DNA of 64,000 bases from an uncultured Chloroflexia bacterium (GTDB lineage Bacteria; Chloroflexota; Limnocylindria; Limnocylindrales; CSP1-4): positions 193,975-257,974 of the forward strand of contig CAWDXT010000015.1 of NCBI GenBank assembly GCA_963806265.1, read 5' to 3'. Below, piece by piece: positions 3,454-64,000 of the stretch (the first letter of the stretch is position 1; each line of letters starts with the position of its first letter). The notes beneath the pieces are model-generated. The model was not told the DNA's origin. It did no database searches and saw only the letters and a list, made by a program, of their open reading frames with translations. The translations under genes were made by a program, and so were the position numbers.

Positions 3454-3463
3454 CCGAGCAGCG

Positions 3464-4225: not shown

Positions 4226-4657
4226 ATGTCGTTGCTTCATCGTCTGCTTGCCCCGACCACGGTTGCCCGCGCCCACTGCGACCTGCCGTGTGGCGTCTAC
4301 GATCCCGAGCAGGCACGGATCGAGGCCGAGTCCTGCTACAAGATCATCGAGAAGATGGGTGCCAACTCCGACCCGGCGTTCACGACGCGAGCGATCGCGA
4401 TCAAGGAGGAGCGGGCCGATCTCGTCAAGCATCACCTCGACGTGCTGTGGCACGACTACTTCAAGCCCGAGCACCTCGAGACCGTGCCCAACCTTCACGA
4501 CCTGTTCTGGAACGCGACCAAGCAGGTCTCGAAGGTCAAGGCATCGACCAACATCGACGACGCCAGGAAGCTGCTGGACATGATCGACGAGGTCGACGCC
4601 GCATGGAAGGCGACGGGCGGCGAGGGCAAGACCCGGGTCGCCGGCCGACCCAGCTGA
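4226..4657 (+). CDS. sodN: Nickel superoxide dismutase precursor
   Basis: MSLLHRLLAPTTVARA / HCDLPCGVYDPEQARIEAES: a cleavable leader followed by the Ni-hook HCDLPCGVY. GGAGG lies 6 nt upstream of ATG 4226. Confidence 0.95.
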   Translation: MSLLHRLLAPTTVARAHCDLPCGVYDPEQARIEAESCYKIIEKMGANSDPAFTTRAIAIKEERADLVKHHLDVLWHDYFKPEHLETVPNLHDLFWNATKQVSKVKASTNIDDARKLLDMIDEVDAAWKATGGEGKTRVAGRPS

Positions 4658-11541: not shown

Positions 11542-11732
11542 GGTTGGTTCAGCATGCCACCGGTCACGCGCCGCTGCGCGGTGGCGCGAGGCTCGGAACG
11601 CCCCGGTCGCTATGCCGGACGGCGGCCCGGTCGGGCGTACCGGCCCTTGCGCCCCGAGAGGATGCGCCGAATCGTCTGGATGGCTGCTCGGCGCCTGATC
11701 GCCGAGGGCGCCGGCAGGTAGGGGTGCGCACG

Positions 11733-19955: not shown

Positions 19956-20037
19956 TCGCCCACCTGGCCTCGGGCCGCGGTTGCGGCTGTCGAACAGCAG
20001 GTACGTGGGATCGCGTCGGATGCGACACTACGCCGCC

Positions 20038-21717
20038 ATGACAGCGATCGCGGACCGGCTCCGGACGACGCTGCGCGTCGCGGGACGCGTGGTCGGCAAC
20101 CCGGGTCTGCTGCGAGTCGAGCTCGCCTTCCTCGCGTTCAACATCGTCGAGTACGGCAGCTGGATCGCGATCCTCCTGTTCGCCTACGAGGCGACGGGTC
20201 CGGAGTCGGTCGGCGTGGTGGCGCTGGGCCTGCTGATCCCCGCGGCGATCGCGGCGCCCCTGATGTCGACGGTGGGCGATCGATACCCGCGCCAGCTCGT
20301 GCTGGTGGGGGCGTATGGAGGCCTTGGGCTGGTGACCGGGCTCGTCGCCGCGGGCATGCTGGCCGGCTGGCCAGCTCTCCTCGTCTACGTCCTCTCGGCC
20401 ACTGACGCGTTCCCGCTGACACCGGTCAGACCGACGCACAACGCGCTGCTGCCCTCGCTTGCCCGCGACCCCGACGAGCTGACCGCGGCCAATGCCGTGA
20501 CCAGCATCGCCGAAGCCGGCGGCATGCTCCTCGGGCCGATGCTGGCCGCAATCGTGCTGTGGTTCGCGACGCCCGGTGCCGTGCTCGTCGCGCTTGCCAT
20601 CGTGTCCGGGATGGCGATGCTGCTCATCGCGCCCGGTGCGTTTCGCGGCGCGACGAGCCCCGATGGTGAGCTGGTCACCACCGCCACCGGGGACGATGAG
20701 CCATTGGCGGTGCGGATCGTTGCCGGGTTCCGGGCGCTGATGATCGACGGCGAAGCCCGGATGATCGTCCTGATCCTGGGCGCACGAACGCTGATGATCG
20801 GCGTGACCGATGTCCTGTTCGTGCTGCTCGCCCTGGAGCTGTTCGGGACCGGCGACTCGGGGGCCGCGGTGCTCTCTGCGGCCATGGGCGTCGGCGGGAT
20901 CATCGGGGGCGGCGCGGCCATCGCCGTCGTCGGGCGTGAGCGGATGTCGACCATCATGCTCGCCAGCGCGCTGACCTGGGGCGCGGCGTTTGCGGTGCTG
21001 GGGATCGTGGGTTCGGGCAGCCTCGCGCCGATCCTGATCGCGCTCGGCGGCAGCGGCCTGAGCCTGCTCGACGTGGCCGGTCGCACGGTGCTCCAGCGGG
21101 GCGTCCGGAACGCGATCCTGGCCCGCGTGTTCGGGATCCTGGAGAGCCTCATGATGGCGGCCCTGGCCGTCGGGTCGATCCTGGTTCCGGTCGTGGTCGC
21201 CCTGGTCGGGCTCGAGGCCTCGGTGCTCGTGTTCGCTGCGCTGCTGCCCGTCGTCCTGGCGCTGTCCTGGTCCGGGCTCCGTGCCCTGGACCGCCGGGTA
21301 GCCGTCCCGGAGCGCGAGCTCGGTCTCCTGCGTCGCATCCGGATGCTCGAGGCGCTGGACCCGCCCGCGATGGAGGGCCTGGCCCGGGCTGCCGCCTGGC
21401 TGGAGGTGCCCGCCGGTGCCGTGGTCATCCGCGAGGGCGACCTCGGCGACCGCTTCTACGTGCTCGAGACGGGCGCCGTGGCGGTGAGCCGTGACGGCGT
21501 CCCGCTCCGGACGCTGGACACCACGGGCAATTCCTTCGGCGAGATCGCGCTGCTGCTGGACGTGCCCCGGACCGCGACGGTCATGGCCTCCGTGCCGTCC
21601 GTGCTGCTGGTCCTCGACCGGGCCACGTTCCTTGCCGCGGTCACCGGTCATCCGGTCGTGCGTGCCACGGTCATCCGGACGGTCGACGACCACCTGCGCA
21701 CGGACGCCACGCGGTAG
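20038..21717 (+). CDS. MFS transporter fused to a C-terminal cyclic-nucleotide-binding domain
   Basis: About 12 hydrophobic segments, then LRRIRMLEALDPPAMEGLARAAAWLEVPAGAVVIREGDLGDRFYVLETGAVAV...GNSFGEIALLLDVPRTATVMA (a CAP_ED phosphate-binding cassette). The start is taken at MTAIADRL. Confidence 0.8.
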   Translation: MTAIADRLRTTLRVAGRVVGNPGLLRVELAFLAFNIVEYGSWIAILLFAYEATGPESVGVVALGLLIPAAIAAPLMSTVGDRYPRQLVLVGAYGGLGLVTGLVAAGMLAGWPALLVYVLSATDAFPLTPVRPTHNALLPSLARDPDELTAANAVTSIAEAGGMLLGPMLAAIVLWFATPGAVLVALAIVSGMAMLLIAPGAFRGATSPDGELVTTATGDDEPLAVRIVAGFRALMIDGEARMIVLILGARTLMIGVTDVLFVLLALELFGTGDSGAAVLSAAMGVGGIIGGGAAIAVVGRERMSTIMLASALTWGAAFAVLGIVGSGSLAPILIALGGSGLSLLDVAGRTVLQRGVRNAILARVFGILESLMMAALAVGSILVPVVVALVGLEASVLVFAALLPVVLALSWSGLRALDRRVAVPERELGLLRRIRMLEALDPPAMEGLARAAAWLEVPAGAVVIREGDLGDRFYVLETGAVAVSRDGVPLRTLDTTGNSFGEIALLLDVPRTATVMASVPSVLLVLDRATFLAAVTGHPVVRATVIRTVDDHLRTDATR

Positions 21718-27976: not shown

Positions 27977-29102
27977 GGCGCGGCGGTGGTGGACGCGGCG
28001 CCGGTGGTGGGCGCGGCGTCGGTCGTGGCACCGGTGGCGGGGCCCGGGGTCGGATCGGCCGGCGTTCCCTGCCCGGGGCCGGGCGCCGAGGCAGGCTCGC
28101 GCACCGTCCGCGTTCGCGCATCGAAGTAGGACGCCGCCGCGAGGCCGACCATCATGGCCCAGATGATCGCGCCCAGCGCGAGGTGCAGCGTCTGCGTCCA
28201 CTCGGCCAGCCCGGTCAGGACCTGGAGACCGCCCACGACCGCCTGGATCGTGAACAGCACGGCCGACCAGACCGCGAGCCGCACGAGCAGCGGGCGATCA
28301 CGTTGCGTGCGCCACGCGACGAGCGCGGTGGCCCACACGATCAGCCCGACCACCATGGCCACCCAGCGATGGAGCACGTGCGCGGTGTCGGCGTCGGTCA
28401 GCGGCGGGAACAGGGAGCCGTTCATCAGCGGCCAGTCCGGGAACACGTACCACTGCGAGGTCGCGGTGACGTTGGATCCGAACAGGAGCAGGGCGTACAC
28501 GGTCGCCGCGGTGAACGTGGCCAGGAGGGTGAACCGCTGGCTGGCACCGCGACCCGTGATCCGCGCTGGATAGTAGCTGCGGACCAGGATGAACACGAGC
28601 AGCCCCAGCAGGGCCATCGCCGAGGCCAGGTGGGCGGTCACCGATGCGCCGGAGTTGTTGAGCATCACGGTCTCGCGACCAAGCCACGCCTGGAACCCGA
28701 CGAGCAGCACGGCCACGAGCGACATCCACGCGATCGTCCGGTTGTCGCGGTGGTCGCGCCAGGCAAGGAAGGCGAGGCCCAGGATCTCGAACCCGATCAC
28801 GGCGGCGACCGTCCGGTGGATCCACTCCAGCCACGCCTTGTAGTCGTCGAGCGGAGGGATCACCTGGCCGTGGCACAGCGGCCAGTCCGGGCAGCCCATT
28901 CCCGACCCTGTGGCGCGCACGATCACGCCGATCGTCACGAGCAGCACGGTCGTGACCACCGTCGCGGCGGCGAGCTTCTGGAATCGGGTCACGGCGCTGA
29001 CAGATGGCCTCGGAACGAGCTGGTGGGGTCGGGGCGCGACGCCCGCCATTCTACGCGTGCGGCATTCCGGCGCGATCTTCTGACCCGGTCTACTCTGCAG
29101 CC

Positions 29103-30143
29103 ATGTTCCGCCAGACGGCCCTTCGGTCGCACCTCGCCGTTCCCACTGTCGTCGTCACGCTCGCGATCGCGGCCGCCGCCTGCACCTCCGGCAGCAGCGC
29201 CACGCCCGCAGGCCGGCACCCAACGCCTCGCCCGGCGCCACACCCGTCCGGCGCTCGGGGGCAGCCGTCCGCCGGCCCCGTCGGTGCTGCCCGCTGATCG
29301 TCAGCTCGCAGCAGGTCGTGGGTCAGAACCGGTTCTGTTCTCGTTCCTCGATCCCGCGAACAACCGCCGGTGGCGACCCCGGACCGGACGGCGTCGGTCG
29401 CCTTCTCGCACCTGGCGATACGGAGCCCGGACCGGCGACCCAGGCGACGTTCATCTGGGGCATCGAGGGCTCCCGGGGCGACTACGTCGCGAACGTCGAG
29501 TTCCCGGCGGCCGGCGACTGGAGGGCAATGTTCACGACCGCAGGCACCGGCGAGCCGCCGGAGACGATCCGCGTCGGGTTCCAGGTCCAGGAGCACGGGC
29601 TCACGGTCGGCGTCGGGCAAGGCACCGGCCGTCGAAGACGCCGACCGCCGCGGACGTCGGTGGCGACCTGGCGCAGATCGCCACCGACCCGAGCCCCGAT
29701 CCGGCCTTCTACCAGCTGTCCATCGCCAGGCGCGTCCCCAGCACAAGCCGTTCGTGGTGGTCTTCGCCACGCCCGCGTTCTGCACGAGCGCCCGTGCGGG
29801 CCCACCCTCGACCGGGTCAAGCGGTCGCGGCCACGTCCCCGCGAACATGGCGTTCATCAACGTCGAGCCCTACAAGCTCCAGTTCACGGAGGGCCGGCTC
29901 CAGCCCGTCCTGGACGCCAACAACCAGCTCCAGCCGGTGGACGCCGTCAACCAGTGGAAGCCTGCTGTCCGAGCCGTGGATCTTCACGGTGGACTGGAAC
30001 GGGATCGTCCGCGGCTCGTTCGAGGGCGCGTCGGGACCGACGAGCTGCAGGCGGCGATCGCGGCGATCGCCGGGCGCGAGCGGCTGCACCGCGGACCCGA
30101 CCCCGCGGCGGTCCGGCCTGCCCGCGCGTCCTCGAGCCGGTAG
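29103..30143 (+). pseudogene. Thioredoxin-fold (SCO/TlpA-like) lipoprotein; at least 5 frame changes; 3' end uncertain
   Basis: Lipobox MFRQTALRSHLAVPTVVVTLAIAAAACTSG. Conserved-looking pieces are scattered over three frames: ATFIWGIEGSRGDYVANVEFPAAGDWRAMFTT; TPTAADVGGDLAQIATDPSPDPAFYQLSIA; KPFVVVFATPAFCTSA; NMAFINVEPYKLQFTEGRLQPVLDANNQLQPVDAVNQW; LLSEPWIFTVDWNGIVRGSFEG; TDELQAAIAAIAG. Confidence 0.5.
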
Positions 30144-30538
30144 ACCACGAGGTCGCGCCGCTCTGCCCGGAAGAAGACCGCACCGGCGCCGACGTCGCCA
30201 TGTGCTCCGCGAGGTGGCCGGGCGGGAACTGGTCACCATTCTCGAGCGTGCCGATGCGGAACGTGATCACGGCCGGTCGACGAGCCGCAGCGTGAAGGCG
30301 GTGACCTGTGACAGGCCCGGTGGCGTCGATGTGGACCAGCACCCCGTCGACCGGCGAGGTCGGCACGGCATCGGTCGCCGGGCTGTCACCGGGCGTCGCG
30401 CTCGCCGGGGCGGCGATCGACGCCGTCTCGAGCGGGCCCTGCGTCGGCTCGGGCCCGGTCGCGCAGCCCGACCACCAGGACCAGCACCGCGGCACCAGGC
30501 GACGGCGGACGGCGACAAGGCGAGCGAGTCCGGCTCAC
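30100..30538 (-). pseudogene. Small hypothetical lipoprotein; frame-disrupted; 3' end unclear
   Basis: GTG 30538 overlaps the pyrE stop (GTGA). VSRTRSPCRRPPSPGAAVLVLVV then shifts to WSGCATGPEPTQ (lipobox). Further pieces are VDGVLVHIDATGPVT / VTAFTLRLVDRP / VITFRIGTLENGDQFPPGHLAEHM / VFFRAERRDLVVYRLEDA. The evidence is weak. Confidence 0.3.
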
Positions 30539-31223
30539 GCAGGTCCGATGCCCGTGCCACTGCTGCCGGGCTTGACGGCCGGCTCGCCCGCCGCGCAGCG
30601 CGGGCAGGTCGCCGGGCCCGGCCTCATAGGAGTCCAGCTCGAGCTGCCACAGCGCCCGGAGCGGATAGACGGCGGCCCGTCGCGGGCGAGGTGAGCGTGC
30701 GCCAGGCCGCCCGGAGCGGTCGACCAGCACCGCGCACTCGACGATCTCGCCGCCGGCCGCCTCCACCGCCGGGATCATCGCCAGCAGCGAGCCGCCGGTG
30801 GTCAGGATGTCGTCGACGAGCAGCACCCGCTCGCCGGGGCCGATCACGAACCCGCGCCGGAACTCGCGCCGGGGCCGGTCCGTCGGCGCTGGCCACCTCC
30901 TCGGCGAAGATGGCACGGGTGCCCAGCTGGCGGCCCGTCTCGAAGGCGAGGATCACGCCACCCGTCGTCGGGCCGGCAACGAGGTCCACGCGCGGGCACC
31001 GCCGTGGTCGCGCCATTCGGCCGCCCAGAAGCCGCACAGCTCGCTCGTCGCGGCCGGATCCTGGAGCACCTGGAACTTCTCCAGGTAGGCATCGGAATGG
31101 CGACCGCTCTTGAGCACGAAATGACCGTCTGCGCAGGGCGCCGCTCGCGCGGAACAGCGCCTCGGTGCGCTCTCCGATCGCGCGACGCGCGGCGATCTCG
31201 CGGGTCCGCTTGAGGGTGGTCAT
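30535..31223 (-). pseudogene. pyrE: Orotate phosphoribosyltransferase; at least 3 frame changes
   Basis: The pieces are MTTLKRTREIAARRAIGERTEALFRA; GHFVLKSGRHSDAYLEKFQVLQDPAATSELCGFWAAEW; VDLVAGPTTGGVILAFETGRQLGTRAIFAEEV; RREFRRGFVIGPGERVLLVDDILTTGGSLLAMIPAVEAAGGEIVECAVLVDRSG; CPRCAAGEPAVKPGSSGTGIGPA-stop. Confidence 0.8.
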
Positions 31224-31317
31224 CGGCGCCGAATTCTAGGGCCAAGCCACGATCACCGGGATCTGCGGCTCCGCGGGCCTGGGCAGGCGCAGCCGTGGTG
31301 CCATCCTGCGGCAGGCC

Positions 31318-31358
31318 CAGCCGGACTCCCCAGCCCGGACTCCACAGCCCGGACTCCA
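31318..31358. repeat. 13-14-nt tandem repeat x3
   Basis: cagccggactccc / cagcccggactcca / cagcccggactcca, lying between the hypothetical gene and pyrE. Confidence 0.85.
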
Positions 31359-31364
31359 CCTCGG

Positions 31365-32340
31365 CTACGGAACCGCGACCTGGTAGCGCCGCACGCCCTC
31401 GAGTCGCGCGACCACATCCCAGCCCAGCGTCGCGATGGGGCATGGTGACTGGCCCGCGCCACACGCCGGGTGGAACGCGTGGCGCACGAGGAACGTGCCC
31501 ACCAGCCGGGTCGTTCCATCGCCCAGCCCGACGGCATCGCCCTCCAGCGCCACCGTCGCGCCACGGTCCGAGGTCACGGTCCCGTTGCGGAGCGGCTGGT
31601 CGTCGGCCAGGAACGGCGGCGACACGGGACAGGGCGTCGCGCCGGGCGCCGGCGTGCACAGGCCGTGAGGATCGGTCAACAGCCGAGCCGCCGACCAGCG
31701 CCAGCGTCATCGGGAAGGGCCGGGTCGGTCGCCCGGCAAGCAGCCCGCGCATCGACGACACCGGATCGCCGGGTCGGATCACGCCGAGGTACACGAGCCT
31801 GCCCGCCTGTGGCCGCATCACCAGCACCGAGCCTGGCGGTGGCGCCTCCCAGTACACGAGCGCGGGGGCCAGGTCGATGGGGATGTCGAGGCCGGGCACG
31901 ACCGCCACCAGGCAATCGATGGCGAAGCTCTGACCGCACAGCTGCTGCTGGGCGACCAGGCGGGCGCTCAGGAATACCAACGATCCGTCCAGGCCGCCAT
32001 TCACCACCCCTGCCTCGAGCTCGGCCGGATCCAGGGTCACCGGGTCCGGCAGGGCCGGCCAGTCGAAGGCGACGGCCGGCGAGGAGTCGGGCGACGGTCG
32101 CGTTGTCGATGGCCCCGGTGACGGTGAGCTGCGCGATTGCGGTGAGCCCTCGGAGCGCAACGCCTGGTCGGGCGATGGGGTCGGCGGCGATCCCAGCGTG
32201 GCCAACCCCAGGCCGACCACGATGATGCCCACCACGATGGCTCCGGCCACCAGCGCCCGGGCCCGTCCGCCCCGGGGTCCCGGCAGCCGGGTGGGCTCGA
32301 CCCGAAGCTCTCGATCAGGCGGCAGTCGCTGGTCAGCCAT
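31365..32340 (-). pseudogene. Hypothetical N-terminally membrane-anchored protein; frame change near 31680
   Basis: MADQRLPPDRELRVEP...ALVAGAIVVGIIVVGLGLATLG (anchor), a Ser/Pro linker, then FDWPALPDPVTLDPAELEAGVVNGGLDGSLVFLSARLV...ALVYWEAPPPGSVLVMRPQAGRLVYLGVIRPGDP. It continues in another frame as LTDPHGLCTPAPGATPCPVSPPFLADDQPLRNGTVTSDRGATVALEGDAVGLGDGTTRLVGTFLVRHAFHPACG. I recognised no family. Confidence 0.5.
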
Positions 32341-41283: not shown

Positions 41284-41833
41284 CTAGTAGACGGACACCG
41301 TGACCTTGGTGGTACCAGCCCACGACCCACAGCCGCAGATCTTGAAGAAGTCGGGCCGGTACAGGTCCACGACCCGGATCTTCTTGACCGGACCATAGTC
41401 GGTGACCGTGCGTTGGATGCAGCCGGCTTTGCCGCAGATCCGGACGACGGTGCCGCGCGGCAGCCGCATCGCCGTCGTCCCGTTGTCGTAGAAGGACGCG
41501 TAGCCGGAGATCGTGTACTTCGGCTGCTTCCAGGCCTGGCCCGAGCGTGCGGCCGGTTGATCGGCCCTGGGCCGGGCAGTCGGCCCGTCAGGCACCGCAC
41601 CGAGCTCCACGAACCCGGCATCGCTGGTGGCCTTGCCGGCCTGCTGCAGGGCAGCGTCAACCTCGCCCGGGACCGAATTGTTCAGGGCGTTCGCTGGGAT
41701 GGTGACCGTCGAGTAGGCGACCGGACCCAGCGCCAGGGACGTCGAGATTGACCTCGAGCCCGCGGGATCCGGCAGCCCGGCCAGTGCGACCACGGCGATG
41801 AGCGCCGCAGCCGCGACGACCGTTCTGCGTCGC
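41284..41833 (-). CDS. Secreted RlpA-like double-psi beta-barrel (DPBB) protein
   Basis: Signal peptide MRRRTVVAAAALIAVVALAG. C-terminal SGYASFYDNGTTAMRLPRGTVVRICGKAGCIQRTVTDYGP...VVDLYRPDFFKI. Confidence 0.75.
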
Positions 41834-41952
41834 ATGACTGGGCCAAGGGTATCCCATGCCATCGATCCGCGTGGGTGACGGGGTGGCCACCGGCGAGGAC
41901 CGCATGGGCTGAGCGCCGAGCGTCCGGCCGCTGAACGTCCGGACCACGCGCC

Positions 41953-43708
41953 TCAGCGAACGATGCTGGCGCCGGCGATCGTGGACAGCTGGAGTCGCCC
42001 GAACGTGCTTCCCTGCCAGGCGAGCACCTCGACCTTGGTATCGCTGCCCGGATCGGGGTGCCGACCACGCGAGGTGGCCGGTTCGGAGCGAGATGCTGTC
42101 GTAGGCGGGTGCGTTCTCGAGCACCGGGTGCTTCAGATCCGCGAGGCCCGTCGCCTGATCGACGGGATAGAGGCTCAGGCGGCCAACCTCGTCAGGTCCG
42201 TCGGACACCCACACCGCCACCACCGAGCTGTCCTGATCCCACTGGACCTCCCAGTCACCCAGGGGGCCGTCCGCCAGCACCTGGGCGTCGGACGCGCCGT
42301 CCGGCCACGGCGCGAGGACCAGGTGACCCTGATCGGGGATCCACATCTGGCCGTCAGCTGCGGGCTTGACCGTGCCTTCCCACCATGCGGCAACCTGACC
42401 GTCCGGTGAGACCGTGGGTCGCCACATCGACGCGTCGCCCACCTTCTCCTCCTCGCCCGAATGTCTCGATCGAGGATTGCCGTGACCGGGTTGCCATCGA
42501 CGACCCGGCTGATCAGGAGTCGATTGCCCAGCCACCCGTTGAACACCGACCTGTGGTCACTGGTCACCGCGACCGCACGCGCATCGCTCCCCTGCCACAC
42601 GAAGACGTCGGGACCGGCAGAGCCATCCGCTGGTCGCGCCGAGAACGCAAACGCGCTTCCATCGTCCGAGTAGCCCGCTGCGGATCCGACCACCGTCACG
42701 TCGCTCGCGATCTCGAGCGCGCCGTCGGGCCCCGGCGAGACCGCAACGCTCGGTGCCGGCGTCGGGAGCCTCAGAGCCGTCCGGTGGGGCCGACGGTGAT
42801 CCGGACGGAGATCCGGTGTCCGAGGGCGCGACCGACGGCGACTCGGACGCGGGTTGGGTCGGGACATCGCTGGCGGTCGGGGACGGCGACCTCGGTCGGC
42901 CCAGGGGTGGCGCTAGGCTCGGCGGTCGACGCAGGCGAGCCGGACGCCGCGGGCGTCTTCCCGGCCGACGGCGACGTCGAGGGCGCGGGCGTCCCGCTCG
43001 GCGCGGATGTCTCGGGCGCTGGGCTGCCCGCCTCCGCGTGTGACATCGCCACCACGTACAGCCGCTGCGGACCCGAACCACGCTCGAGGACCACGAGGTG
43101 ATCCTGCGTCGGCGAGATGATCCCAGCGAGCCTGGCATTACCCTCCAGCCGCGTGGACTGGGTGACGTCCATGGCGGCGGACAGCCCGCAGCTGGTCGTC
43201 CCCATGGGGCATACCTGGTCGAGCTGCCGGGAGAGGATCTCGACCGATCCGTCCTCTGCGCGGCTGACCATCCGAAGCACGCCGCCGGGGATCGTGATCG
43301 GCGTCGCCTCGGCGACAGCGCCCGAGCCGGGCAGCAGCGGCGACCTCCGTTCAGCACCCCGAGGACCGCGAGCGCGACGACAAGGAGCCCCGCGGCCGGC
43401 GCGAGCGGCAGCCATCCCCGGCCATTCGCCCGTGCGCCGGGTGCCGGGTGGGCGTCGATCGCGGCTGCGGTCCGTGCCCAGAGGTCGCGCGGCGGCTCCG
43501 GCCGGGCGTTGCGCAGCGCGTGCAGGGCCGAACGCTGCGCCGCATAGTCGGCGGCGATCGACCGGCATCGATCACAGCTCCCTAGGTGGGCGTTCAGCCA
43601 CGCCTCGTCCGCCGATGCCAGCGGCTCGTCCATTCGCCGGGCCGCCAGCTCCCCCGCGCGCGTGTGTGTCCCGAGCCCCGGGGTCAGGCGCCTGAGCCAA
43701 TCGCTCAT
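41953..43708 (-). pseudogene. Anti-sigma factor (zf-HC2) with TM segment, Ser/Pro linker and TolB/PD40-like beta-propeller domain; at least 5 frame changes
   Basis: WLNAHLGSCDRCRSIAADY (zf-HC2). TM WLPLAPAAGLLVVALAVLGVL. Later pieces in other frames: PITIPGGVLRMVSRAEDGSVEILSRQLDQVCPMG; GYSDDGSAFAFSARPADGSAGPDVFVWQGS; VSPDGQVAAWWEGTVKPAADGQMWIPDQGHLVLAPW; VEVLAWQGSTFGRLQLSTIAGASIVR-stop. The start overlaps the sigma stop (ATGA). Confidence 0.7.
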
Positions 43709-44328
43709 GACCGATCTCCCGCGTCCGTCGCGGACTCGGCACCTGCCAGCGCCTCCCGCTCCACCACAAGCGCACGCCGGAGGCTCTCACGTGCCCGGGT
43801 GAGCAGCGCCCGCGCGGCGACGTGTGAGACGCCAAGGGCCGACGCAAGCTCGAGGCCCGTGAGATCGTGCAGCTCGGACAGGAGCAGTGCAGAGCGCTGA
43901 CGCTCGGGGATCCGACCCAGCGCACGCTCCAGCTCGCCGGACAGCCGCGCGTCCATCACCAGCTGCTCGGCCGATGGGGCCGTCGCTCGCGCCTCGCCCG
44001 CGAGCGGCACGAACCGGACGATGCGCCGGCGTCGCAGCTCGTCGAGCGCGACCCGATGGGCGATCTGGTACAGCCACGCCCGGGCGTTCTCGGGCTTCTG
44101 GAGCGAGTCGTAGGCGCGATAGGCCTTGACGAACGCGTCCTGCGTGAGGTCCGCGGCCAGCTCCTCGTCGCGGAGCATCCGCGCGAGGTACGCGTAGATC
44201 TCGTGGTGGTGCCTGGCGAACAGGTCCTCGACGAACCGGTAGGCATCGTCGCGGTCCCAGGCGGCGCTCACGCGGAGCCCCGCCGCCAGCGGCGCATTGG
44301 GCTCGAGCTCGAAGGATCTGACGACCAC
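43705..44328 (-). CDS. ECF-type RNA polymerase sigma-70 factor
   Basis: IYAYLARMLRDEELAADLTQDAFVKAYRAYDSL (region 2) and RSALLLSELHDLTGLELASALGVSHVAARALLTRARESL (region 4 HTH). The start is tentative at GTG 44328. Confidence 0.85.
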   Translation of the reverse strand: MVVRSFELEPNAPLAAGLRVSAAWDRDDAYRFVEDLFARHHHEIYAYLARMLRDEELAADLTQDAFVKAYRAYDSLQKPENARAWLYQIAHRVALDELRRRRIVRFVPLAGEARATAPSAEQLVMDARLSGELERALGRIPERQRSALLLSELHDLTGLELASALGVSHVAARALLTRARESLRRALVVEREALAGAESATDAGDRS

Positions 44329-56091: not shown

Positions 56092-56715
56092 ATGCCGGGC
56101 CGTGTCAAGAAGCGCACGTATGTCTCCCCCGCCCGCCGGGCGCAGGCCGACGCGACGCGCCGACGGATCCTGGATGCCGCCGCCTCGCTGTTCCTCGAGC
56201 GTGGCTACGCGCGAACCAGCACCGCCTCGATCGCGCGGGCGGCACGGACCTCAGAGGCGACCGTGTTCGCGGTCTTCGGCACGAAGGCCAACCTGCTGGT
56301 CTCGGTCATCGCTGACCAGGTGGGCCGGCAGGACTTCCCGCTGCGGAGCGACCCGATCTGGCTCGTGCTGGCGGCCAACGCCGACAAGCGGCCGGCCGTC
56401 GAGCAGATGGCACGCGTCGTGCGGGGCGCCCACGACCGCAGCTGGCGCCTCCTCGCCATCGCGTGGGCCGCGGCCGAAGACGATCCCGAGGTTGCCAGGG
56501 CAGCTCGTCGCGGGGCTGACAGCCGTCACGGCGACGCTGCGTGGTTCGTGCGGGACGTCATCGGGATCGGCGATCCGGAGGCCAGCCCCGTCATCGACGC
56601 CGTCTGGACGCTGGTCAGCGTCGAGAACTACCGACACCTCGTCGTGGAGCGGTCATGGGCGCCCGAGCGCTACGAGGAGTGGCTGGCGGCGATGGTGACC
56701 GCCGTGCTTGGCTGA
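56092..56715 (+). CDS. TetR-family transcriptional regulator
   Basis: RRRILDAAASLFLERGYARTSTASIARAARTSEATVFAVFGTKANLL (TetR HTH). It is divergent from the hydrolase-MFS pair. Confidence 0.85.
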   Translation: MPGRVKKRTYVSPARRAQADATRRRILDAAASLFLERGYARTSTASIARAARTSEATVFAVFGTKANLLVSVIADQVGRQDFPLRSDPIWLVLAANADKRPAVEQMARVVRGAHDRSWRLLAIAWAAAEDDPEVARAARRGADSRHGDAAWFVRDVIGIGDPEASPVIDAVWTLVSVENYRHLVVERSWAPERYEEWLAAMVTAVLG

Positions 56716-57076: not shown

Positions 57077-57865
57077 CTATTCCTGCCGATTGAACGCGAT
57101 CACCGCGCCGCCCAGCAGGATGGCACCCAGGATCCCGACCACCACGATCTCCTCGACGATGGTCATCGTGTGCCCGAAGACCATGACGCCCAGCCCGCTG
57201 CTGGTGCCGAGGAAGATCTGGCGGATGGCGTCGACGCCGTAGGTCAGCGGGTTGATCTTGGAGATGACCGCCAGCCAGGCCGGCACGTCGTTCACCGGGA
57301 AGAAGACGCCGGCCAGGAAGATGAGCGGGAAGATCAGCAGCTGGATGACCAGCTGGAAGCCCTGCTGGCTGGTCATGAACGTCGCGATCAGGATGCCCAG
57401 CCCGGACAGCCCGAGCGCCAGGATCGCCACGATCGGGATGAGCGCCGAGCACGATCGCGGGCGTGAGCGTCACGCCGACGATCGGCGCCAGGACGAGCAT
57501 GATCACGACCTGGAGCAGCACCGGTGATCGTCGCCCCGATCGCCTTGCCCAGGACGATCCCCGCTGCGCCCGATCGGGGCGACCAGGATCTCGCGCAGGA
57601 AGCCGTACTCGCGGTCCCAGACGACCGACACGCCGGCGAACAGCGAGCTGGTCAGCACCGTCATCGCCACGATGCCCGGGTACATGAACTGGATGAAGTC
57701 GACGCCCGGCGCCACGGTGCCGATGACATTGGCGAACCCGGCACCGAAGATCACCAGGAACAGCAGCGGGAAGGCCAGGCTGGAGATGATCCGCGAGCGC
57801 TCGTTGACGAACCGCAGCAGCTCCCGGTAGGCGACGACCCAGGTGCCGCGCCAGATCTCGGCCAT
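57077..57865 (-). pseudogene. ABC-2 type transporter permease; 2-3 frame changes near 57430-57530
   Basis: MAEIWRGTWVVAYRELLRFVNERSRIISSLAFPLLFLVIFGAGF...VVWDREYGFLREILVAPI; middle LLQVVIMLVLAPIVGVTLTPA; C-terminal half MAILALGLSGLGILIATFMTSQQGFQLVIQLLIFPLIFLAGVFFPVNDVPAWLAVISKINPLTYGVDAIRQ. Confidence 0.75.
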
Positions 57866-57930
57866 CAGTCGCGCGACCTCGCCTCCCCCAGCGCCCGCCC
57901 CTGGAGCATCTGCTCGCGGGCGTCCAGCTC

Positions 57931-58935
57931 CTAGTCCCGGATCTCGTGGCCGGTCAGGGTGATGAACACGTCATCGAGGCTGGGGCGCTGCAGGCTGATC
58001 GACTGGCAGCGGCTGCGGGAAGGTGCGGACGAACTCGGGCAGGAACGTGTCGCCGGCCGGGACGTGGAACCGGACCACGCCGTCCTGGACCCCGGGCTCG
58101 ACGTCGTAGCGTCGCCGGACCTCGTCGGCCGCGGCGGCCGGGTCGTCCACCGAGAACGTGATCAGATCGCCGCCGACGGCGCGCTTGAGCCCGTCCGGGC
58201 GTGTCGAGCGCCACGATCTCGCCGCGGTCGATGATCGCGATCCGGTCGCAGTTCTCGGCCTCGTCCAGGTACTGGGTGGTGAGGAAGATCGTGAGCTGCT
58301 CCTGCTCGCGCAGGCGGAGCAGGTACTCCCAGATGTGGCGCCGGGTCTGGGGGTCGAGGCCGATCGTCGGCTCGTCGAGGAAGAGCACCTTGGGGTGGTG
58401 GACCAGGCCGCGCGCGATCTCCAGGCGGCGCTTCATGCCGCCCGAGAAGGTGCGCACGCTGCCCTTGCGCCGATCCCACAGCTCGACCATCTCGAGCAGC
58501 TCGCGGATGCGCCGGTCGCGGACCTCCGCCGGGCACGTCGTAGGCATAGGCGTGGAACCGAAGGTTCTGCTCGGCGCTCAGGTACTCGTCGACGGTCGTC
58601 TGCTGGAACACCAGCCCGATCGAGCGCCGGACCTCGCTCCGCTGGCGGGCGACGTCGAAGCCGTTGACCGTCGCCCGGCCGCCCGACGGGTGGAGCAGCG
58701 TGCACAGCATGTTGATCGTGGTCGACTTGCCGGCACCGTTCGGGCCCAGGAAGCCGAACAGCTCGCCCTCGGCGACCTCGAACGAGACGCCCTTGACGGC
58801 CTCGATCGCCCCGAACCGCCGAGCGAGCTGATCGACCTCGATCGCGTTCGGGGTTCCGGGACCGGGCCGCATTCGCCCATCGTTCGACCCGGGCGCAGCA
58901 GTGGAACGCTCCGGGGCAACCTCGACCTGGGTCAT
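57931..58935 (-). pseudogene. ABC transporter ATP-binding protein (DrrA-like); at least 3 frame changes
   Basis: FGFLGPNGAGKSTTINML (Walker A)...LVFQQTTVDEYLSAEQNL; then SGGMKRRLEIARGLVHHPKVLFLDEPTIGLDP (signature/Walker B)...FLTTQYLDEAENCDRIAIIDRGEIVALDTP; tail LDDVFITLTGHEIRD-stop. Confidence 0.85.
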
Positions 58936-59032
58936 CGGGTCCGGTGGGGTGGTCGGCGGTGACTCCACCGCGATGACGACGATCGTTCCTGGGACGACAT
59001 CGATCGAATTCTACGCTCGGTCCGCGGATGCC

Positions 59033-60266
59033 TCAGGCGGGTGTTCCGCCGGCAGCCGCCGAGCGCCGCGGGCTCGGGCCACGCCGGCCGATATGGCGCA
59101 TCAGCAGCACCCGGCCCAGGAGCATGAGGACCACGGCCAGCATCGCCAGCGTGGCGGTTGCGAGCCAGGTGACCGTGTAGCCCGCCTGGATGACGAGCGC
59201 TCCCGCGGCGACCGGGCCGAGCATCGCGCCGGTGGACGGACCCAGGCGCACGATCGCCATCGCGGTTGCGGGCGAGGTCGGATTGGAGCGGGAGACCGCC
59301 AGCAGCACCAGGCCCTGGTACCCCCAGCCCCCGCCGAAGGCCAGGATCGTCGCGAGCACGATCATGGCCGGGTCGCTCCCGGCCAGGGCCAGCATGAGGT
59401 AGCCCGCCGCGCCGATGACCTGGAGCACGATGACGATCTTGAGCGAGCCGCGACCCAGCCGGTCGGCAACCCAGCCGCTGAAGATCCGCATCGACACGCC
59501 GGCCAGGCTGCCGAACGTCAGCAGCAGACCGGCAGCTGATGCCTGGAACCCGTTCGCGGCGGCCGACTGGACCGTGAACGAGGCCAGCGCGTTGCCTGCG
59601 GCCGCGCCCGAGCCCGGCCGCGATGGCGATCACGAGCAGCGCCTGGACCGGCGCATCGCCCTCGCGCGACGCGCGGTCTGCCGGGCGCCTGAACGGCCGC
59701 GGCCGGCCGGCGAGCCGGAACACCACCAGCGCGCCGCCGGCGGCAAGGATGAACGCCCACCGCCACCCGATGGTCAGCCCGATGGCCGGGACGGCGAGAC
59801 CGGCGAGGAGACCGGCCAGCGGGATCGAAGACTGCTTGACGCCGTAGGCGAGACCCTGGCGGTCGGGTCGAACCGCGGTCGCGAGGAGGTGATTGATGGC
59901 GATCGGTCCGATCGTGTTGCCGGTGCCGGCAACGAACATCCAGGCGACGAGCGCGGGCCAGCTCCGGGCCGTGACTGCGATCCCGACCAGCGCAACGGCG
60001 GTGATCGCCACGCCCGCCAACAGGGCGCGATGCGGGCCGAGTCGCTCCGAGACCAGCCCGGCCGGGATCGAGAACAGGACGGATGCGGCGAAGAAGGCGG
60101 AGATCGCCAACCCGAGCTGGAACTCGTCGAGGCCGAGATCGGCGCGCACCAGGACCGCCAACCCGGCGACCAGCAGGGCCGGCAGCGACCCAACGGTCGA
60201 CGCGGTGATCGCCGTCGCGACGGTGCGGGACAGGCCGGGCGGCGATGGCGTCGGGTCGAGGGGCAC
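59033..60266 (-). pseudogene. MFS transporter; frame change(s) near 59500-59620
   Basis: N-terminal half LPALLVAGLAVLVRADLGLDEFQLGLAISAFFAASVLFSIPAGLVSERLGPHRALLAGV...AYGVKQSSIPLAGLLAGLAVP. C-terminal half in another frame FSGWVADRLGRGSLKIVIVLQVIGAAGYLMLAL...AFGGGWGYQGLVLLAVSR. The start is tentative at GTG 60266. Confidence 0.75.
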
Positions 60267-60601
60267 GACTCGAATCGTAGGTCGCTGGCGAGCTGGGGAA
60301 GCCGTGTAAGTGCTCTCGAGCCGTGGCCGCAACTCCGTGGTCACCGATGGCGGGCGGCCAGGAGCCACGTTGCGTCGGGGCGCGTCGCAGGTGCAGCGCG
60401 TATGGACGGGTGCCGTAGGATCGAGGTGACCCCACGTTCGCGATCAGGATTGGCGTTCCCATGACGACTTTGGCGGCCCCATGACGATCGACCTGGAAGC
60501 ACTGTCACTCGAGGAGCTGACCGAGCTCCAGAACGATCTCGCGGCGGTGCTGCGCCGCCGGGCCGGGGCCCCCACGGATCGCCGGGACGGAGCTCCACGA
60601 C

Positions 60602-61813
60602 GTGATCCGGGTCGGGATGCACCGCTACCGGGCCGTGGTGGAATCGGTGGCCCCGTGGACCAGGCGGGACACGTACCTGACCGAGTACCGGCGCTGCGTC
60701 CTGGGGATCAGCCTGGGGAGCCGAAGCTCGGAGGGCGCCCGGTTCGAGGCCGCCGTTCGCTGGGTGGCCGAGAACTACGACGAATGTGCGCTGGGCGTCG
60801 GGGACGGCATGTACCGGTACACGCTGCAGGTCACCGACGGCCGATCGGGGAACCCGCGGCGCGACATGACGCCGGAGGCCTGGCACGCGCTGGCGATCGA
60901 GGCCGGCCGGGAGTTTCAGCAGCACGCCGAGCAAATCGTCGCCCCGTATCGTGATCAGTGCCGGTTCACGTGGTATCCGATGTCGAGGATCGTGGCGGGC
61001 AGCTCGTTCCGGGAGGACCTCGCCGCCTACCGGGCCCTCTACGAGACCAACGATCCGTATCGCAACCTGGTCCACGAGTTCGCCGCAGGCTACCTCGCGC
61101 GTGTGCTCCAGACCGATGGGACGTCACCGCCTGACCCTGCCCATCACCAGGCTGCCTGCGACTACCTCCTCGAGGAGAGCGCGATCTTCACCCAGCTGTG
61201 CCGCGAAGGTTGGGAGCTGCTGGTCTACCCGGGCTCCATCGCGATGTTCTCGGCGATCGCCGAGGGCCGGTTCCCCGAGGTGCCGGACCCGATCAAGAGG
61301 CTGGTCCACGTCGCCCTGAAGCTCAAGCGCGGCAGCCTGTTCTTCGCCGAGAGCACCGAGTATCCATATCCGGCCCTGCCGGATGATCACGTTCACGCCG
61401 ACTCGGACGAGGACGCGATCGCGCCGGGCGTGCTGTGCGAGTTCGGCGAGGACGAGTGGCGGCGATTCATGCCCTACACCACGCGCCGGCACATGCTGGC
61501 GGGCGAGATCCTGGCGCCTGCGGGTGACCTGGACCGCAGCCTGTACATCCTGCTCGAGGGCGATCTCGAGGTGCTCGACGGCGACTGGCGATCGGGGAAG
61601 CTCACGCAGCTGTCGACGCACCATCCGGGCTCGGTGCTGGGCGAGCGAAGCTTCGTCGACGGCCGGCCGAGAACGACCACCGTGGCCGCCCTCGGCGAGT
61701 GCGAGGTGCTGGTCCTGCCGCAGAAGCAGATGCAGCGCATGCGGCAGCGGGATCCGGCGCTCGCGGCAGCGCTGCTGTTCGACATCAGCCGGGAGCTGGC
61801 GCTCAAGGGCTGA
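60602..61813 (+). CDS. tRNA-dependent cyclodipeptide synthase (XYP-type)-like domain fused to a C-terminal cyclic-nucleotide-binding domain
   Basis: RRCVLGISLGSRS...AAVRWVAENYDECALGVGDGMYRYTL...CDYLLEESAIF...LLVYPGS parallels AlbC ALIGISAGNSYFS...LLQWAGQRFERTDVVYVD...NYVLAEAPLF...CYH, compared from memory. The C-terminal LYILLEGDLEVL...GSVLGERSFVDGRPRTTTVAALGECEVLVL is a CAP_ED phosphate-binding cassette. The start is GTG 60602 or ATG 60617. A 5' extension from ATG 60481 is possible. Confidence 0.7.
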   Translation: MIRVGMHRYRAVVESVAPWTRRDTYLTEYRRCVLGISLGSRSSEGARFEAAVRWVAENYDECALGVGDGMYRYTLQVTDGRSGNPRRDMTPEAWHALAIEAGREFQQHAEQIVAPYRDQCRFTWYPMSRIVAGSSFREDLAAYRALYETNDPYRNLVHEFAAGYLARVLQTDGTSPPDPAHHQAACDYLLEESAIFTQLCREGWELLVYPGSIAMFSAIAEGRFPEVPDPIKRLVHVALKLKRGSLFFAESTEYPYPALPDDHVHADSDEDAIAPGVLCEFGEDEWRRFMPYTTRRHMLAGEILAPAGDLDRSLYILLEGDLEVLDGDWRSGKLTQLSTHHPGSVLGERSFVDGRPRTTTVAALGECEVLVLPQKQMQRMRQRDPALAAALLFDISRELALKG

Positions 61814-61880: not shown

Positions 61881-64000
61881 CTAGGGCAGCGGCGCCCACT
61901 GCAGATACAGCTGGCCGTTCACCAGCCAGATCGTCGCGAACCCGTCCGTGGTCGCGAACCTGACCGGGTTGCCGGTCAGGTAGTCGAGATTGACCTGGTC
62001 CACTCCCGAGCCGAGCGACCGGCGCCGTCGCGACCTGGACCGGCGGCGAGCCGTCGGCCGGCTGGCGCAGCAGCTCCTCCTCGGCGCGCGAGCGCTGGAG
62101 GTACACCCCGGTCGCATCGCCGCCCACGACCGTACCGTCCTCGATGGGGATGGTGGCGGACGGACCTCCCGTCCCTTCGATGAACACGGCGTTGCCCGAC
62201 TGGTCGGTCGTCCACACGCCGTCACCGGCCGGGAACACGCCGAACAGGCTGCCCAGGTCGACGAACGCCTGGTCCTGGTCGGTGAGCCGGGACAGGCTGT
62301 TCTGGGTCGTGTAGCCGTACACGGCCGTCGGCGCGTCCTGGCAGCAGCCGCCGATGTTGTCGAGCGCCACGCTCCGACCCGGCTTGTTGGTGCCAGGGTC
62401 GATCCGGGTGAGCCTGGCGCCCGTCTGTGAGCTGAGGTCGTAGGCGGACGTATCCACGAACCAGACCGAGGTACCCATCGAGACGATCCGTGGACCCGTG
62501 TAGCCGAACGTGCACGGGATGGGGAAGGTCGCCTGGACGTCGAGCGTGTCCGGGTCGAACCGGGTGACGGTGCATACGTTGCCGCTCGAGTCATTGCTCA
62601 GGCCTGACGCCCACAGCGAGCCGTCGGCGACGTGGAGGTCAGTCGCCCGCGGCTCGTCGACCTGCTTGAGCACCTTGCCGGACTTCGGATCGATGGCCAG
62701 GATCTGGGGTTTCCCGGCAGCCGTGTCGACCGAGAGGTCGATGATGCCGTCGGCCGAGATCGCCTGGCCCTGGATATCAACCGCCTCACCGATCGGCGTC
62801 ACGCCGGTCCCGCCGGCGCCGGGCGAGATCGACGGCGCGGGGCTCTGGGACGCCGGCGCCGCGATCCCGCTGTCGTACAGGTCCTGCTGCGCCTCGTACC
62901 CGCCGGCGAAGCCGTCGTCGCCGGTCGCTGCCACATCGAACACGCACTCGGGGTGAAGCTCCTCGTCGGTGACGGTCGCGCAGGCCGTCTCGGCGGTCAG
63001 GAGCACGTCCGGCGGAAAGCTGGGCTGGGCCTGGTTCGGGGCGTCGGCCGGGAAGTCGCGGTCCGTGAACGTCGTCGTCGACGTACCTGGGTCGTAGTCG
63101 AAAAGCGAGGTCGCGTCGGTCACCCGCCAGGCGTCGGCGAACTGGCCGTACAGAACCTGGTCGCGGGTCGCCTGGTCCGGCGCGGCCGGCAGCTGGGTGC
63201 CGTCGGGGAGCGCCGGCACGCCCATCCCGCCCGGAGTGATCGGGCCGAGCAGGCCCGTGCCACCGCTGCGCAGCTCATCGGATGGCTGGATCACGGCATG
63301 GATGCCCCACTTCCCGGCCGACAATGCCCACAGGATGGTCCCGTCAGGCATGTCGACCTGGATCCCGTGGTCGACGGCACGGACGTCGCCCGCACCGACG
63401 GGCACCGCGGATGACGGATCGACATCCTGACCGTCCACCTTGACGTCGAGGCCACCGATCGCGTCGACATAGATGCCGACGCGGTGCTCGTCCACCCTCG
63501 CCGCGATCGCCTGGTTGACGGAGAAGGGCACGGTCTCGTACGGCACCTGGCGCACCTGGATCTCGACGCTCCCGTCGGGCGAGCGCAGGAGCGTGAACTC
63601 GCCCGCGCCCTGGAAGTCATACCGGTAGCGGTTGACCGTGCGCAGGTGCGGGTCGCCGTTCGAATCGGGCAGCTTGCCTGGCATGGGGTGCTGGGCTGGA
63701 TCGACGGCAGCGGCTTGCAGTACTCGTCGAGCGCGTGCCCTGTGACCGTGGCGTTGGCACCTGCGAGGCTGCCGGTCAGCGCGAGCTCGAACACGTCGGG
63801 CGCCGGCTGCAGATCCGGGCCGGCGAACCGCGTCCCGGCCGGGCAGTCACAGCCGCCGCTCTTCGTACACAGCCAGCGCTGCGCGGTGTCGGTCTCATCG
63901 CGTCCCGTGTCGGTGTGAATGCGGACGTGCCCGGTGGCGTGGATCTCAACGACGTCCGCCTGCGAGGTGAAGGTCCAATCCTGGTTCTGCACCTCGACGG
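61881..64000 (-). pseudogene. Large secreted protein with a von Willebrand factor type D (VWD, GDPH motif) domain and a beta-propeller-like C-terminal region; N-terminus outside window; 2 frame changes (about 63690, about 62010)
   Basis: DSNGDPHLRTVNRYRYDFQGAGEFTLLRSPDGSVEIQVRQVP...VDGQDV (VWD pattern). Upstream piece in another frame WTFTSQADVVEIHATGHVRIHTDTGRDETDTAQRWLCTKSGGCDCPAGTRFAGPD. C-terminal piece VDQVNLDYLTGNPVRFATTDGFATIWLVNGQLYLQWAPLP-stop in a third frame. Confidence 0.6.

Follow-up and report, generated by a model that had tools for sequence, protein, structure and literature searches.

Can a cyclodipeptide synthase (CDPS) be switched directly by an intracellular second messenger? 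Current accounts describe CDPSs as small enzymes that act alone and are always active; regulation of their pathways is attributed to transcription, and the domains known to be fused to them have tailoring or transport functions. The question is raised by a single gene in a 64,000-nucleotide stretch of contig CAWDXT010000015.1 (assembly GCA_963806265.1, an uncultured Chloroflexia bacterium), the whole of which is called the window and supplies the position numbers used below. An initial annotation, made from the letters of the window, read this gene as an XYP-type CDPS fused to a CAP/CRP-type cyclic-nucleotide-binding domain (CNBD). Here, we analyse the two domains of the encoded product (the window protein), the family of proteins to which it belongs, the state of its reading frame, and its gene neighbourhood, and we weigh the proposal that cAMP or cGMP gates the synthase allosterically. 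Features of the locus are collected in Table 1.

The N-terminal domain has the predicted fold and catalytic residues of an XYP-type CDPS

The N-terminal domain of the window protein matches NCBIfam TIGR04539 (InterPro IPR030903) over residues 27–236 with a score of 55.8 bits, above the curated cutoff of 45 (E 4.6e-15). In a phmmer search against Protein Data Bank (PDB) sequences, residues 7–242 match 9J61 with an E-value of 2.4e-32, and the five best matches are all CDPSs (9J61, followed by 5OCD, 9I5M, 5MLQ, and 9IAM). In 9J61 the solved enzyme is SsBcmA, a member of the XYP subfamily that makes cyclo(Ile-Leu) in the bicyclomycin pathway (PMC11580168). Structure prediction, one of the checks proposed in the initial annotation, likewise returns a CDPS. 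The AlphaFold2 (AF2) model, built on a 29-sequence family alignment, has a mean predicted local distance difference test (pLDDT) score of 89.2, mostly above 90 in the CDPS domain, and a predicted template modelling (pTM) score of 0.76. Its predicted N-terminal fold is Rossmann-type, resembles class-Ic aminoacyl-tRNA synthetases, and can be superposed on solved CDPSs. In a Foldseek search of the PDB with the model, ranks 1–22 are all CDPS structures, headed by 9J61 (target-normalised template modelling (TM) score 0.93, root-mean-square deviation 2.4 Å, E 5e-20, 31% identity), after which come the XYP CDPSs of Fluoribacter, Nocardia, and Rickettsiella. The latter three (Fdum-CDPS, 5OCD; Nbra-CDPS, 5MLQ/9I5M; Rgry-CDPS, 5MLP) share the fold and the XYP signature with the window protein (target-normalised TM 0.68–0.83), but are single-domain enzymes with only 16–24% identity to it.

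The placement of the catalytic residues in the initial annotation is borne out by alignment to S43, Y185, E189, and Y206 of SsBcmA. Specifically, the catalytic set of AlbC (S37, Y178, E182, and Y202) has its counterparts in S37, Y188, E192, and Y209 of the window protein, all of them present. Mutation of S43, Y185, or E189 abolishes the activity of SsBcmA, in which N46, Y206, and P207 make up the XYP motif (PMC11580168). S40 of the window protein aligns with N46 of SsBcmA and is therefore the 'X' of XYP, at the position that is N40 in AlbC and is not Asn here. Together with Y209-P210, and with closest solved structures that are all of the XYP type, this agrees with the earlier assignment to the XYP rather than the NYH subfamily. 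Conservation was counted over 29 fusion proteins (Table 1). The Pro of XYP is replaced by Ala, Ser, or Gly in eight of them, namely the seven members of a eukaryote-like branch and P0023, and the following G211 is kept in all 29.

The best match in both sequence and structure, SsBcmA of Streptomyces sapporonensis, also serves as the reference for the substrate pockets. The cLX-type P1 pocket of BcmA consists of F39, G41, L71, G73, C125, I192, F193, and M204 (PMC11580168). The corresponding residues of the window protein are V33, G35, G65, G67, M127, I195, F196, and L207, of which G35, G67, I195, and F196 are identical, while V33, G65, M127, and L207 take the places of F, L, C, and M. P2 residues F160, Y164, and G211 (window protein numbering) are identical as well. 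With only four of eight P1 residues shared, the product is not predictable beyond 'probably hydrophobic residues'. SsBcmA is a stand-alone enzyme of ~240 residues encoded in an oxygenase cluster, whereas the window protein carries a CNBD and a probable N-terminal helix and has no tailoring neighbours. A BcmA-type enzyme is recognised by the cLX-type P1 pocket together with a cluster of 2-oxoglutarate/Fe oxygenases and a P450; as pocket, cluster, and clade all differ, the window protein, judged by its sequence, is not a BcmA ortholog and not a BcmA-type cyclo(Ile-Leu) synthase. By profile, alignment, and predicted fold it is an XYP-subfamily CDPS of the BcmA-like branch with a complete catalytic set, and is likely to be catalytically active.

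The C-terminal domain is a CNBD with a canonical phosphate-binding cassette

The initial annotation had located a CAP/CRP-type CNBD at residues ~280–400. Pfam PF00027 (cNMP_binding) matches residues 296–384 with 59.3 bits against a cutoff of 27.5 (E 3.8e-16), and the Foldseek matches of the C-terminal domain are CNBDs, those of CRP-like regulators included (2PQQ, 4EV0, 3H3U, 1U12, SthK, and MloK1), so that this part of the annotation stands. In canonical binders (PKA, CAP, MloK1), the Gly-Glu and Arg-Ser/Thr pairs of the phosphate-binding cassette (PBC) contact the ribose and the cyclic phosphate. The window protein has both pairs, and it shares the full G-E...G-x-P-R-[ST]-x-T-V-x-A cassette with 15 other family members. 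Across the family, the PBC Glu is present in 20 of 29 proteins and the Arg in 16 of 29, the latter being most of the bacterial members. The CNBD, as read from these residues, probably binds cAMP or cGMP; the sequence does not discriminate between the two.

No helix-turn-helix (HTH) family matches after the CNBD, and the protein ends at residue 403 in the C-helix of this domain. With nothing beyond the C-helix, the window protein is not a CRP/FNR transcription factor. CRP/FNR factors and Pycsar effectors have the same CNBD fold and phosphate-binding cassette, but the window protein, unlike them, has no HTH, no TIR or transmembrane effector, and no neighbouring cyclase. In the AF2 model the two domains are joined by a linker in which residues 261–275 are the only stretch of the protein with pLDDT below 50.

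Two kinds of known protein offer a comparison. In published CDPS fusions (PMC5816076; PMC5767969) the CDPS likewise comes first in a longer polypeptide, and the CDPS module of one published fusion has been shown to be active in isolation (PMC5816076; Skinnider et al. 2018, PMC5767969). The partners in those fusions are tailoring or transport domains, whereas the partner here is a ligand-sensing domain, which would imply allosteric control rather than chemical elaboration. In mycobacterial Pat (Rv0998/MSMEG_5458), cAMP activates a GNAT acetyltransferase through a fused CNBD (PMC5861322). Pat too combines a CNBD and a catalytic domain in one polypeptide of high-GC bacteria, and the window protein has a weak match to it at the level of the CNBD (NCBIfam NF058543, E 0.015); the CNBD of Pat is N-terminal, however, reversing the domain order, and its catalytic domain is unrelated, so that the analogy is one of mechanism and not of whole-protein homology. 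A further precedent for a CNBD-gated enzyme is Bd1971, reported to be a cAMP-sensing EAL phosphodiesterase (PMC6717892).

The fusion is genuine and defines a small conserved family

A profile search over 1.84 billion representative proteins gave 130 matches at E ≤ 1e-30, and the best 150 proteins were scanned with custom hidden Markov models (HMMs) of both domains. About 33 cluster representatives (50% identity) have a CDPS followed by a CNBD, collinear in one match, with 26–54% identity among the fusion homologs to the window protein. When homologs were sought by word-indexed searching, the protein and a 29-sequence profile had each given only five proteins; it was the exhaustive profile search that uncovered the family. 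Scans of genome and metagenome contigs returned only distant CDPS-only loci (20–28% identity). The window protein is a singleton among 15 billion collected proteins, with 53% identity to its nearest relative. The host DNA, counting homolog loci and window together, ranges from 44 to 70% GC.

Because the two domains are collinear in ~33 homolog clusters, they are not a mis-joined pair, and the assignment of both to one gene is upheld. The coding signal of the window itself leads to the same gene. Around the fusion the DNA is ~69–70% G+C, and G+C at third codon positions (GC3) is 0.88–0.96 in a single frame from ~60577 to ~61825 (1249 nt), unbroken across both domains; one such strong frame marks the open reading frame (ORF) as genuine coding sequence rather than a spurious long ORF of high-GC DNA. 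An erroneous joining of CDPS and CNBD by an indel was considered and is ruled out by this continuous frame and by the collinear homologs. The linker region reads in the frame of the ORF, neither alternative frame resembling the homologs and one of them containing a stop. The fusion is genuine and under selection, not an assembly artefact.

In a crude neighbour-joining tree of CDPS domains, the fusions form essentially one clade with BcmA in the sister group, and the only non-fusion sequences nested among them are three short 'solo' entries of 199–298 aa. The topology points to a single old fusion that has since been retained. One database labels members of the family simply 'tRNA-dependent cyclodipeptide synthase', and a full-text search of open-access papers and preprints found no description of the CDPS-CNBD architecture. 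The earlier characterisation of the fusion as unusual and uncharacterised thus holds as far as that literature goes, but the protein belongs to a small conserved family and is not a one-off.

A distant branch of the family is eukaryote-like (P0025, P0026, P0030, P0034, P0036, P0037, and P0039). The gene for P0037 (L005, 4603–6336) lies on a 16-kb contig between genes for Dynamitin, Aha1, and WLM proteins, and P0025, P0026, and P0037 have long low-complexity N-termini. Members of this branch have Y-A, Y-S, or Y-G in place of Y-P, and their PBC Arg is replaced, mostly by Ser.

Other domain combinations occur outside the fusion clade. In a sister clade of BcmA-like CDPSs (P0035, P0040, P0070, and ~30 others), the proteins have an N-terminal domain of ~150 aa, which in P0035 and P0070 matches Pfam tRNA_edit (YbaK/ProX aminoacyl-tRNA deacylase fold) above the cutoff. 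Judging by these matches, the CDPS would here be joined to a second module that handles aminoacyl-tRNA, and a literature search returned no paper describing the tRNA_edit-CDPS fusion. P0071 (697 aa) and P0090 (713 aa) combine a C-terminal CDPS with a weak, below-cutoff N-terminal match to response-regulator receiver domains, which hints at further signal-coupled CDPS architectures. The editing-like and receiver-like fusions in the neighbouring clade suggest that this branch of CDPSs may generally be modular and regulated.

The 5′ end of the gene is probably broken by a one-nucleotide indel

Homologs start ~40 residues before the 403-aa ORF, with a conserved M.IDL..MSLEEL..LQ...RRK (alignments to P0002–P0006, P0008, P0010, P0011, P0013, and P0018), and a custom HMM of this N-terminal extension matches P0002–P0006, P0008, and P0027. 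The corresponding segment is found upstream of the fusion ORF in a different frame (Table 1). Deletion of one base from an intervening G4C5 run yields a 443-aa protein with 13 residues between RRR and VIR, exactly the spacing of the homologs, and in a model of this repaired protein the extension is predicted as an 18-residue helix (residues 10–27, pLDDT ~78) on a disordered tether. Read in this way, the ORF is probably 5′-truncated and the native gene, of 443 aa, broken by a one-nucleotide indel. The intact 403-aa ORF of the initial annotation is therefore right for the body of the gene, which lies in one unbroken frame, but probably not for its 5′ end. The public protein P0001 has 398 aa and begins at the ATG at 60617, so the frame break is present in the deposited assembly. 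The indel is most likely an assembly error. Some family members (P0015, P0017, P0019, P0021, and P0023) are naturally without the extension, and a form starting with the GTG at 60602 or the ATG at 60617 would accordingly still be a complete enzyme.

Two further features of the reading frame were examined. The CDPS domain contains a lineage-specific in-frame insertion, DGRSGNPRRD (residues 79–88, positions 60836–60865, + strand), at which it has 8 residues more than any homolog; an origin by paired compensating frameshifts is ruled out, as the other frames hold no homolog-like sequence. A 736-aa ORF on the opposite strand, overlapping the 3′ end of the fusion gene, is an artefact, the real C-terminus of that gene lying in another frame and ending at 61881.

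Frame breaks are frequent in the surrounding genes. The ABC ATPase is split over three to four frames; the ABC-2 permease has two breaks no more than 45 nt apart, and splits occur in the MFS transporter and downstream genes as well. Breaks in this region fall at about 57.5, 58.17, 58.5, 59.6, and 62.05 kb. Across these breaks the Pfam profile positions continue from ORF to ORF (ABC_tran positions 1–80 and 81–136 in different ORFs, and likewise ABC2_membrane 3–89 and 139–211), and the coding signal is not lost. GC3 segmentation of the whole window counts 41 frame switches on the same strand, with ordinary gene boundaries accounting for some of them. In the neighbours, indels of +/-1 cluster at short G/C runs with no accompanying stops, a pattern that looks like the indel errors of an unpolished long-read assembly rather than gene decay. 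The same segmentation found three stretches of 1.6–2.7 kb (2618–4266, 28983–31686, and 41543–43846) in which no coding frame is clear despite overlapping long ORFs.

The gene stands beside candidate exporters and a regulator

Upstream of the fusion gene lie a divergent MFS transporter gene, an ABC-2 exporter, and a gene for a TetR-family regulator, and a convergent gene follows downstream (Table 1). The latter begins with GDPHLRT..YDFQG, a motif reminiscent of VWD-type domains, and it is split by a frame break directly after an LGSG motif (~62000–62020). As stated in the initial annotation, no oxidase, P450, or methyltransferase is adjacent: no cyclodipeptide oxidase, P450, or methyltransferase occurs among the window ORFs scanned. 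An adjacent oxygenase gene is likewise absent. CDPS clusters typically hold a transporter and a regulator (PMC11610984), and among efflux domains encoded near CDPS genes MFS is the most frequent (PMC5767969); the context in the window is thus compatible with a minimal cluster for an untailored cyclodipeptide.

No neighbourhood conserved across the family was found, and the homolog contexts too are without tailoring genes and cyclases, with two exceptions to the pattern. The sole recurrent neighbourhood belongs to the close relatives P0004 and P0006 (L002 5–4728 and L016 96–4482), each of which has upstream genes for an ECF sigma factor and for a large Ser/Thr kinase containing TPR or WD40 repeats. 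In one context only, an Asp/Glu/hydantoin racemase gene (L003 3600–4172, + strand, 83.7 bits) follows 12 nt after the stop of P0005, and this racemase may be a diketopiperazine epimerase or tailoring partner.

The window contains a second CNBD fusion, a 578-aa MFS transporter with a C-terminal cNMP_binding match of 61.6 bits (19981–21717, + strand). Its CNBD is 35% identical to that of the CDPS fusion over 74 aa, which rules out a recent duplication of one from the other. A second CNBD on a protein that is not a regulator suggests that the organism uses the module in this way. Elsewhere in the window, an 806-aa ORF (11160–13580, + strand) encodes a bacterial serpin, with the Serpin match (278 bits) at residues 392–802 behind a long N-terminal region. 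Scans for Rfam families, promoters, terminators, and inverted repeats gave nothing informative, with no Rfam family at gathering score anywhere in the window.

Table 1. Position, strand, and basis of the features of the CDPS-CNBD locus (residue numbers are those of the 403-aa ORF)
Feature	Position	Strand	Basis or remark
CDPS-CNBD fusion ORF as assembled	60602..61813	+	GTG start, TGA stop, 403 aa
XYP-type CDPS domain	60620..61336	+	Residues 7–245; TIGR04539, PDB sequence matches, AF2 model, Foldseek
Ser37 codon, predicted acyl-enzyme nucleophile	60710..60712	+	SsBcmA S43, AlbC S37 by alignment; Ser 27/29
Y188-L-L-E-E192, catalytic Tyr and Glu	61163..61177	+	SsBcmA Y185, E189; Tyr 27/29, Glu 29/29
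Y209-P210, Y-P of XYP	61226..61231	+	SsBcmA Y206-P207; Tyr 28/29, Pro 21/29
Interdomain linker	61337..61447	+	Residues 246–282; acidic, length varies among homologs, alignment gappy
CNBD	61448..61807	+	Residues 283–402: N-terminal helix, beta-roll, C-terminal helices; PF00027, AF2, Foldseek
Phosphate-binding cassette GERSFVDGRPRTTTVAA	61640..61690	+	G347-E348-RSFVDGRP-R357-T358-TTVAA; canonical Gly-Glu and Arg-Thr
N-terminal extension (MTIDLEALSLEELTELQNDLAAVLRRRAGAP...)	60481..60573	+	ATG at 60481; frame differs from main ORF; in-frame N-terminus in homologs
GGGGCCCCC run (G4C5)	60565..60573	+	Likeliest point at which one base was inserted, in assembly or by genuine mutation; parts the extension from the CDPS body
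MFS transporter, divergent, candidate exporter	58932..60368	-	MFS_1 matches on two ORFs in different frames; GC3 frame switch ~59592
ABC-2 exporter (ATPase 57954–58968, permease 57077–57865)	57077..58968	-	Both split by frame breaks
TetR-family regulator	56092..56715	+	TetR_N 49.1 bits
Convergent downstream gene, unannotated, probably secreted protein	61881..63684	-	No Pfam match at E ≤ 0.001

A proposed mechanism and its alternatives

We propose that the CDPS domain takes two aminoacyl-tRNAs and releases a 2,5-diketopiperazine, with Ser37 forming the acyl-enzyme intermediate while Y188, E192, and Y209 carry the reaction to its end. The C-terminal CNBD would be tied to this domain by ~35 flexible linker residues, and its most likely ligand is cAMP or cGMP. 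Other CNBD-fused enzymes suggest by analogy that ligand binding would shift the CNBD helices and the way in which they dock onto the catalytic domain; the tRNA-binding face might, for example, be freed from a CNBD that had blocked it. The shift would turn cyclodipeptide synthesis, together with the diversion of charged tRNA, on or off post-translationally. The lack of adjacent tailoring enzymes makes an unmodified cyclodipeptide, probably of hydrophobic residues, the probable product, which may leave the cell through the divergent MFS transporter or through the ABC-2 exporter. In this scheme we infer catalysis, ligand, direction of regulation, product, and export, whereas the identities of the domains, their predicted fold, the conserved residues, and the conserved, nearly monophyletic fusion are established by the analysis. 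Allosteric coupling of the CNBD to the CDPS, drawn from the analogy, is evenly balanced, and the whole chain, a CDPS gated allosterically by cAMP or cGMP, is in our judgement somewhat favoured.

Several observations weigh against this proposal. The family is known from sequences and predicted structures alone. Pfam PF16715, the CDPS model that the initial annotation had nominated as a check, does not match the window protein even at E ≤ 10; it does match homologs (P0002–P0005 in precomputed annotation, as well as P0035, P0070, and P0026), and its miss is therefore read as a sensitivity limit for this clade and not as evidence against membership. The P1 pocket agrees with that of BcmA at only half of its positions. 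The linker is predicted to be disordered, and a coupling path between the domains is hypothetical. No nucleotide cyclase occurs among the window ORFs scanned or on any homolog contig examined. The PBC Arg is missing throughout the eukaryote-like branch and in 13 of 29 family members overall; binding of cyclic nucleotides is therefore not a property of every member, and the domain may be conserved for a different function. Finally, the 5′ frame break and the heavily frame-broken neighbours leave room for genuine gene decay.

The last two of these points lend themselves to different explanations. If the CDPS is active but the C-terminal domain is no sensor of cAMP or cGMP, it could bind another ligand (a nucleotide of another kind, the product of the enzyme itself, or a metabolite derived from an amino acid) or serve only for dimerisation or for docking to a partner. 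Classical second messengers would in that case not regulate the enzyme. The CNBD fold serves many ligands across the CRP/FNR superfamily (reviewed, for example, in PMC10187061), and its retention where the PBC Arg or Glu (gone in 9 of 29) has been lost would argue for a role independent of the cyclic phosphate. The lack of a nearby cyclase in any context scanned also counts for this alternative. The window protein and 15 others nevertheless keep the full cassette typical of true cyclic-nucleotide binders, PF00027 matches far above its cutoff, and the closest structural matches are nucleotide-binding CNBDs, and we regard this alternative as unlikely, if still worth serious thought. For decay of the gene in this genome, with the family functional elsewhere, the conserved extension that is out of frame, the break visible in P0001 in the public assembly, and the split ABC ATPase, ABC-2 permease, MFS, and downstream genes would all count, provided that these breaks are real. 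The 1249-nt body without a stop or frame break, its very high GC3, and the intact catalytic and PBC residues speak for a functional gene; breaks at short G/C runs are typical of long-read assembly errors, and the members naturally lacking the extension indicate that even a truncated start gives a complete enzyme. A pseudogene is accordingly improbable.

A more drastic alternative keeps the cyclic nucleotide and changes the purpose: an alarm signal of the CBASS type or of Pycsar (pyrimidine cyclase system for antiphage resistance) would activate the CDPS to drain specific aminoacyl-tRNA pools and arrest translation in stress or phage infection, the diketopiperazine being a by-product. A CNBD joined to an effector domain is the architecture of Pycsar effectors, CDPSs use up charged tRNA, the family is without tailoring genes, and the CNBD has weak PADLOC matches to PycTIR/Pycsar effector models (17–21 bits, and up to 44 bits for P0002) as well as a match to the PycTIR structure PDB 8JSJ (E 1.2e-4). 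The PADLOC matches span the generic CNBD only, however, and the unrelated MFS-CNBD protein of the window receives the same ones; neither in the window nor in seven homolog contexts does PycC or another cyclase lie next to the fusion gene, the surrounding genes are not those of a defence island, and the family reaches eukaryote-like genomes, all of which makes an antiphage or stress effector very improbable. Least of all do we expect that the CDPS-like domain makes no cyclodipeptide and performs another aminoacyl transfer, or merely binds tRNA. Its clade is without a characterised member and separate from that of BcmA, to which the window protein is 31% identical, and pocket residues differ; yet TIGR04539 matches above its cutoff and the full set for two-step ping-pong catalysis and cyclisation is kept, including the cyclising Tyr209. 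A CDPS under the control of cAMP or cGMP thus remains the reading that we prefer.

Implications for CDPS biology

A counterpart of such an enzyme may occur in diatoms. In Seminavis robusta, the attraction pheromone is the diketopiperazine diproline (PMC4726125), and the sex-inducing pheromone induces cGMP signalling genes, with diproline production proposed downstream (PMC4726125, PMC8027222). Diproline synthesis has been inferred to depend on a CDPS (PMC4726125, PMC8027222), and one S. robusta gene, Sro105_g053400, carries the CDPS signature IPR030903 and is not transcriptionally regulated (PMC8027222, Suppl. Table 4), for which reason the authors suggest a 'non-transcriptionally regulated' CDPS. 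We hypothesise that a CDPS with a built-in sensor would fit this gap. The resulting picture is of a one-polypeptide relay, in which cAMP or cGMP switches diketopiperazine synthesis with no transcriptional step and, since the fusion family extends to microbial eukaryotes, a relative of the window protein may be the diatom enzyme; we offer it tentatively and consider it rather doubtful, the diatom link being its weaker part because the eukaryote-like branch lacks the PBC arginine.

Both domains of the fusion are well known, while their combination is apparently unstudied, rare, and conserved. If the proposal is right, a CDPS, and hence the diversion of charged tRNA away from protein synthesis, would for the first time be seen under direct allosteric control. 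Cyclodipeptides have long been suspected of acting as signals, and they would be placed within a signalling chain, with a cyclic nucleotide going in and a diketopiperazine coming out, and an intracellular second messenger would thereby be converted into a diffusible secreted small molecule. In practical terms, such a protein would provide a ligand-switchable CDPS module for synthetic biology. The family itself is small and testable, with ~33 clusters that range from bacteria to microbial eukaryotes and with clear mutational predictions at S37 and R357.

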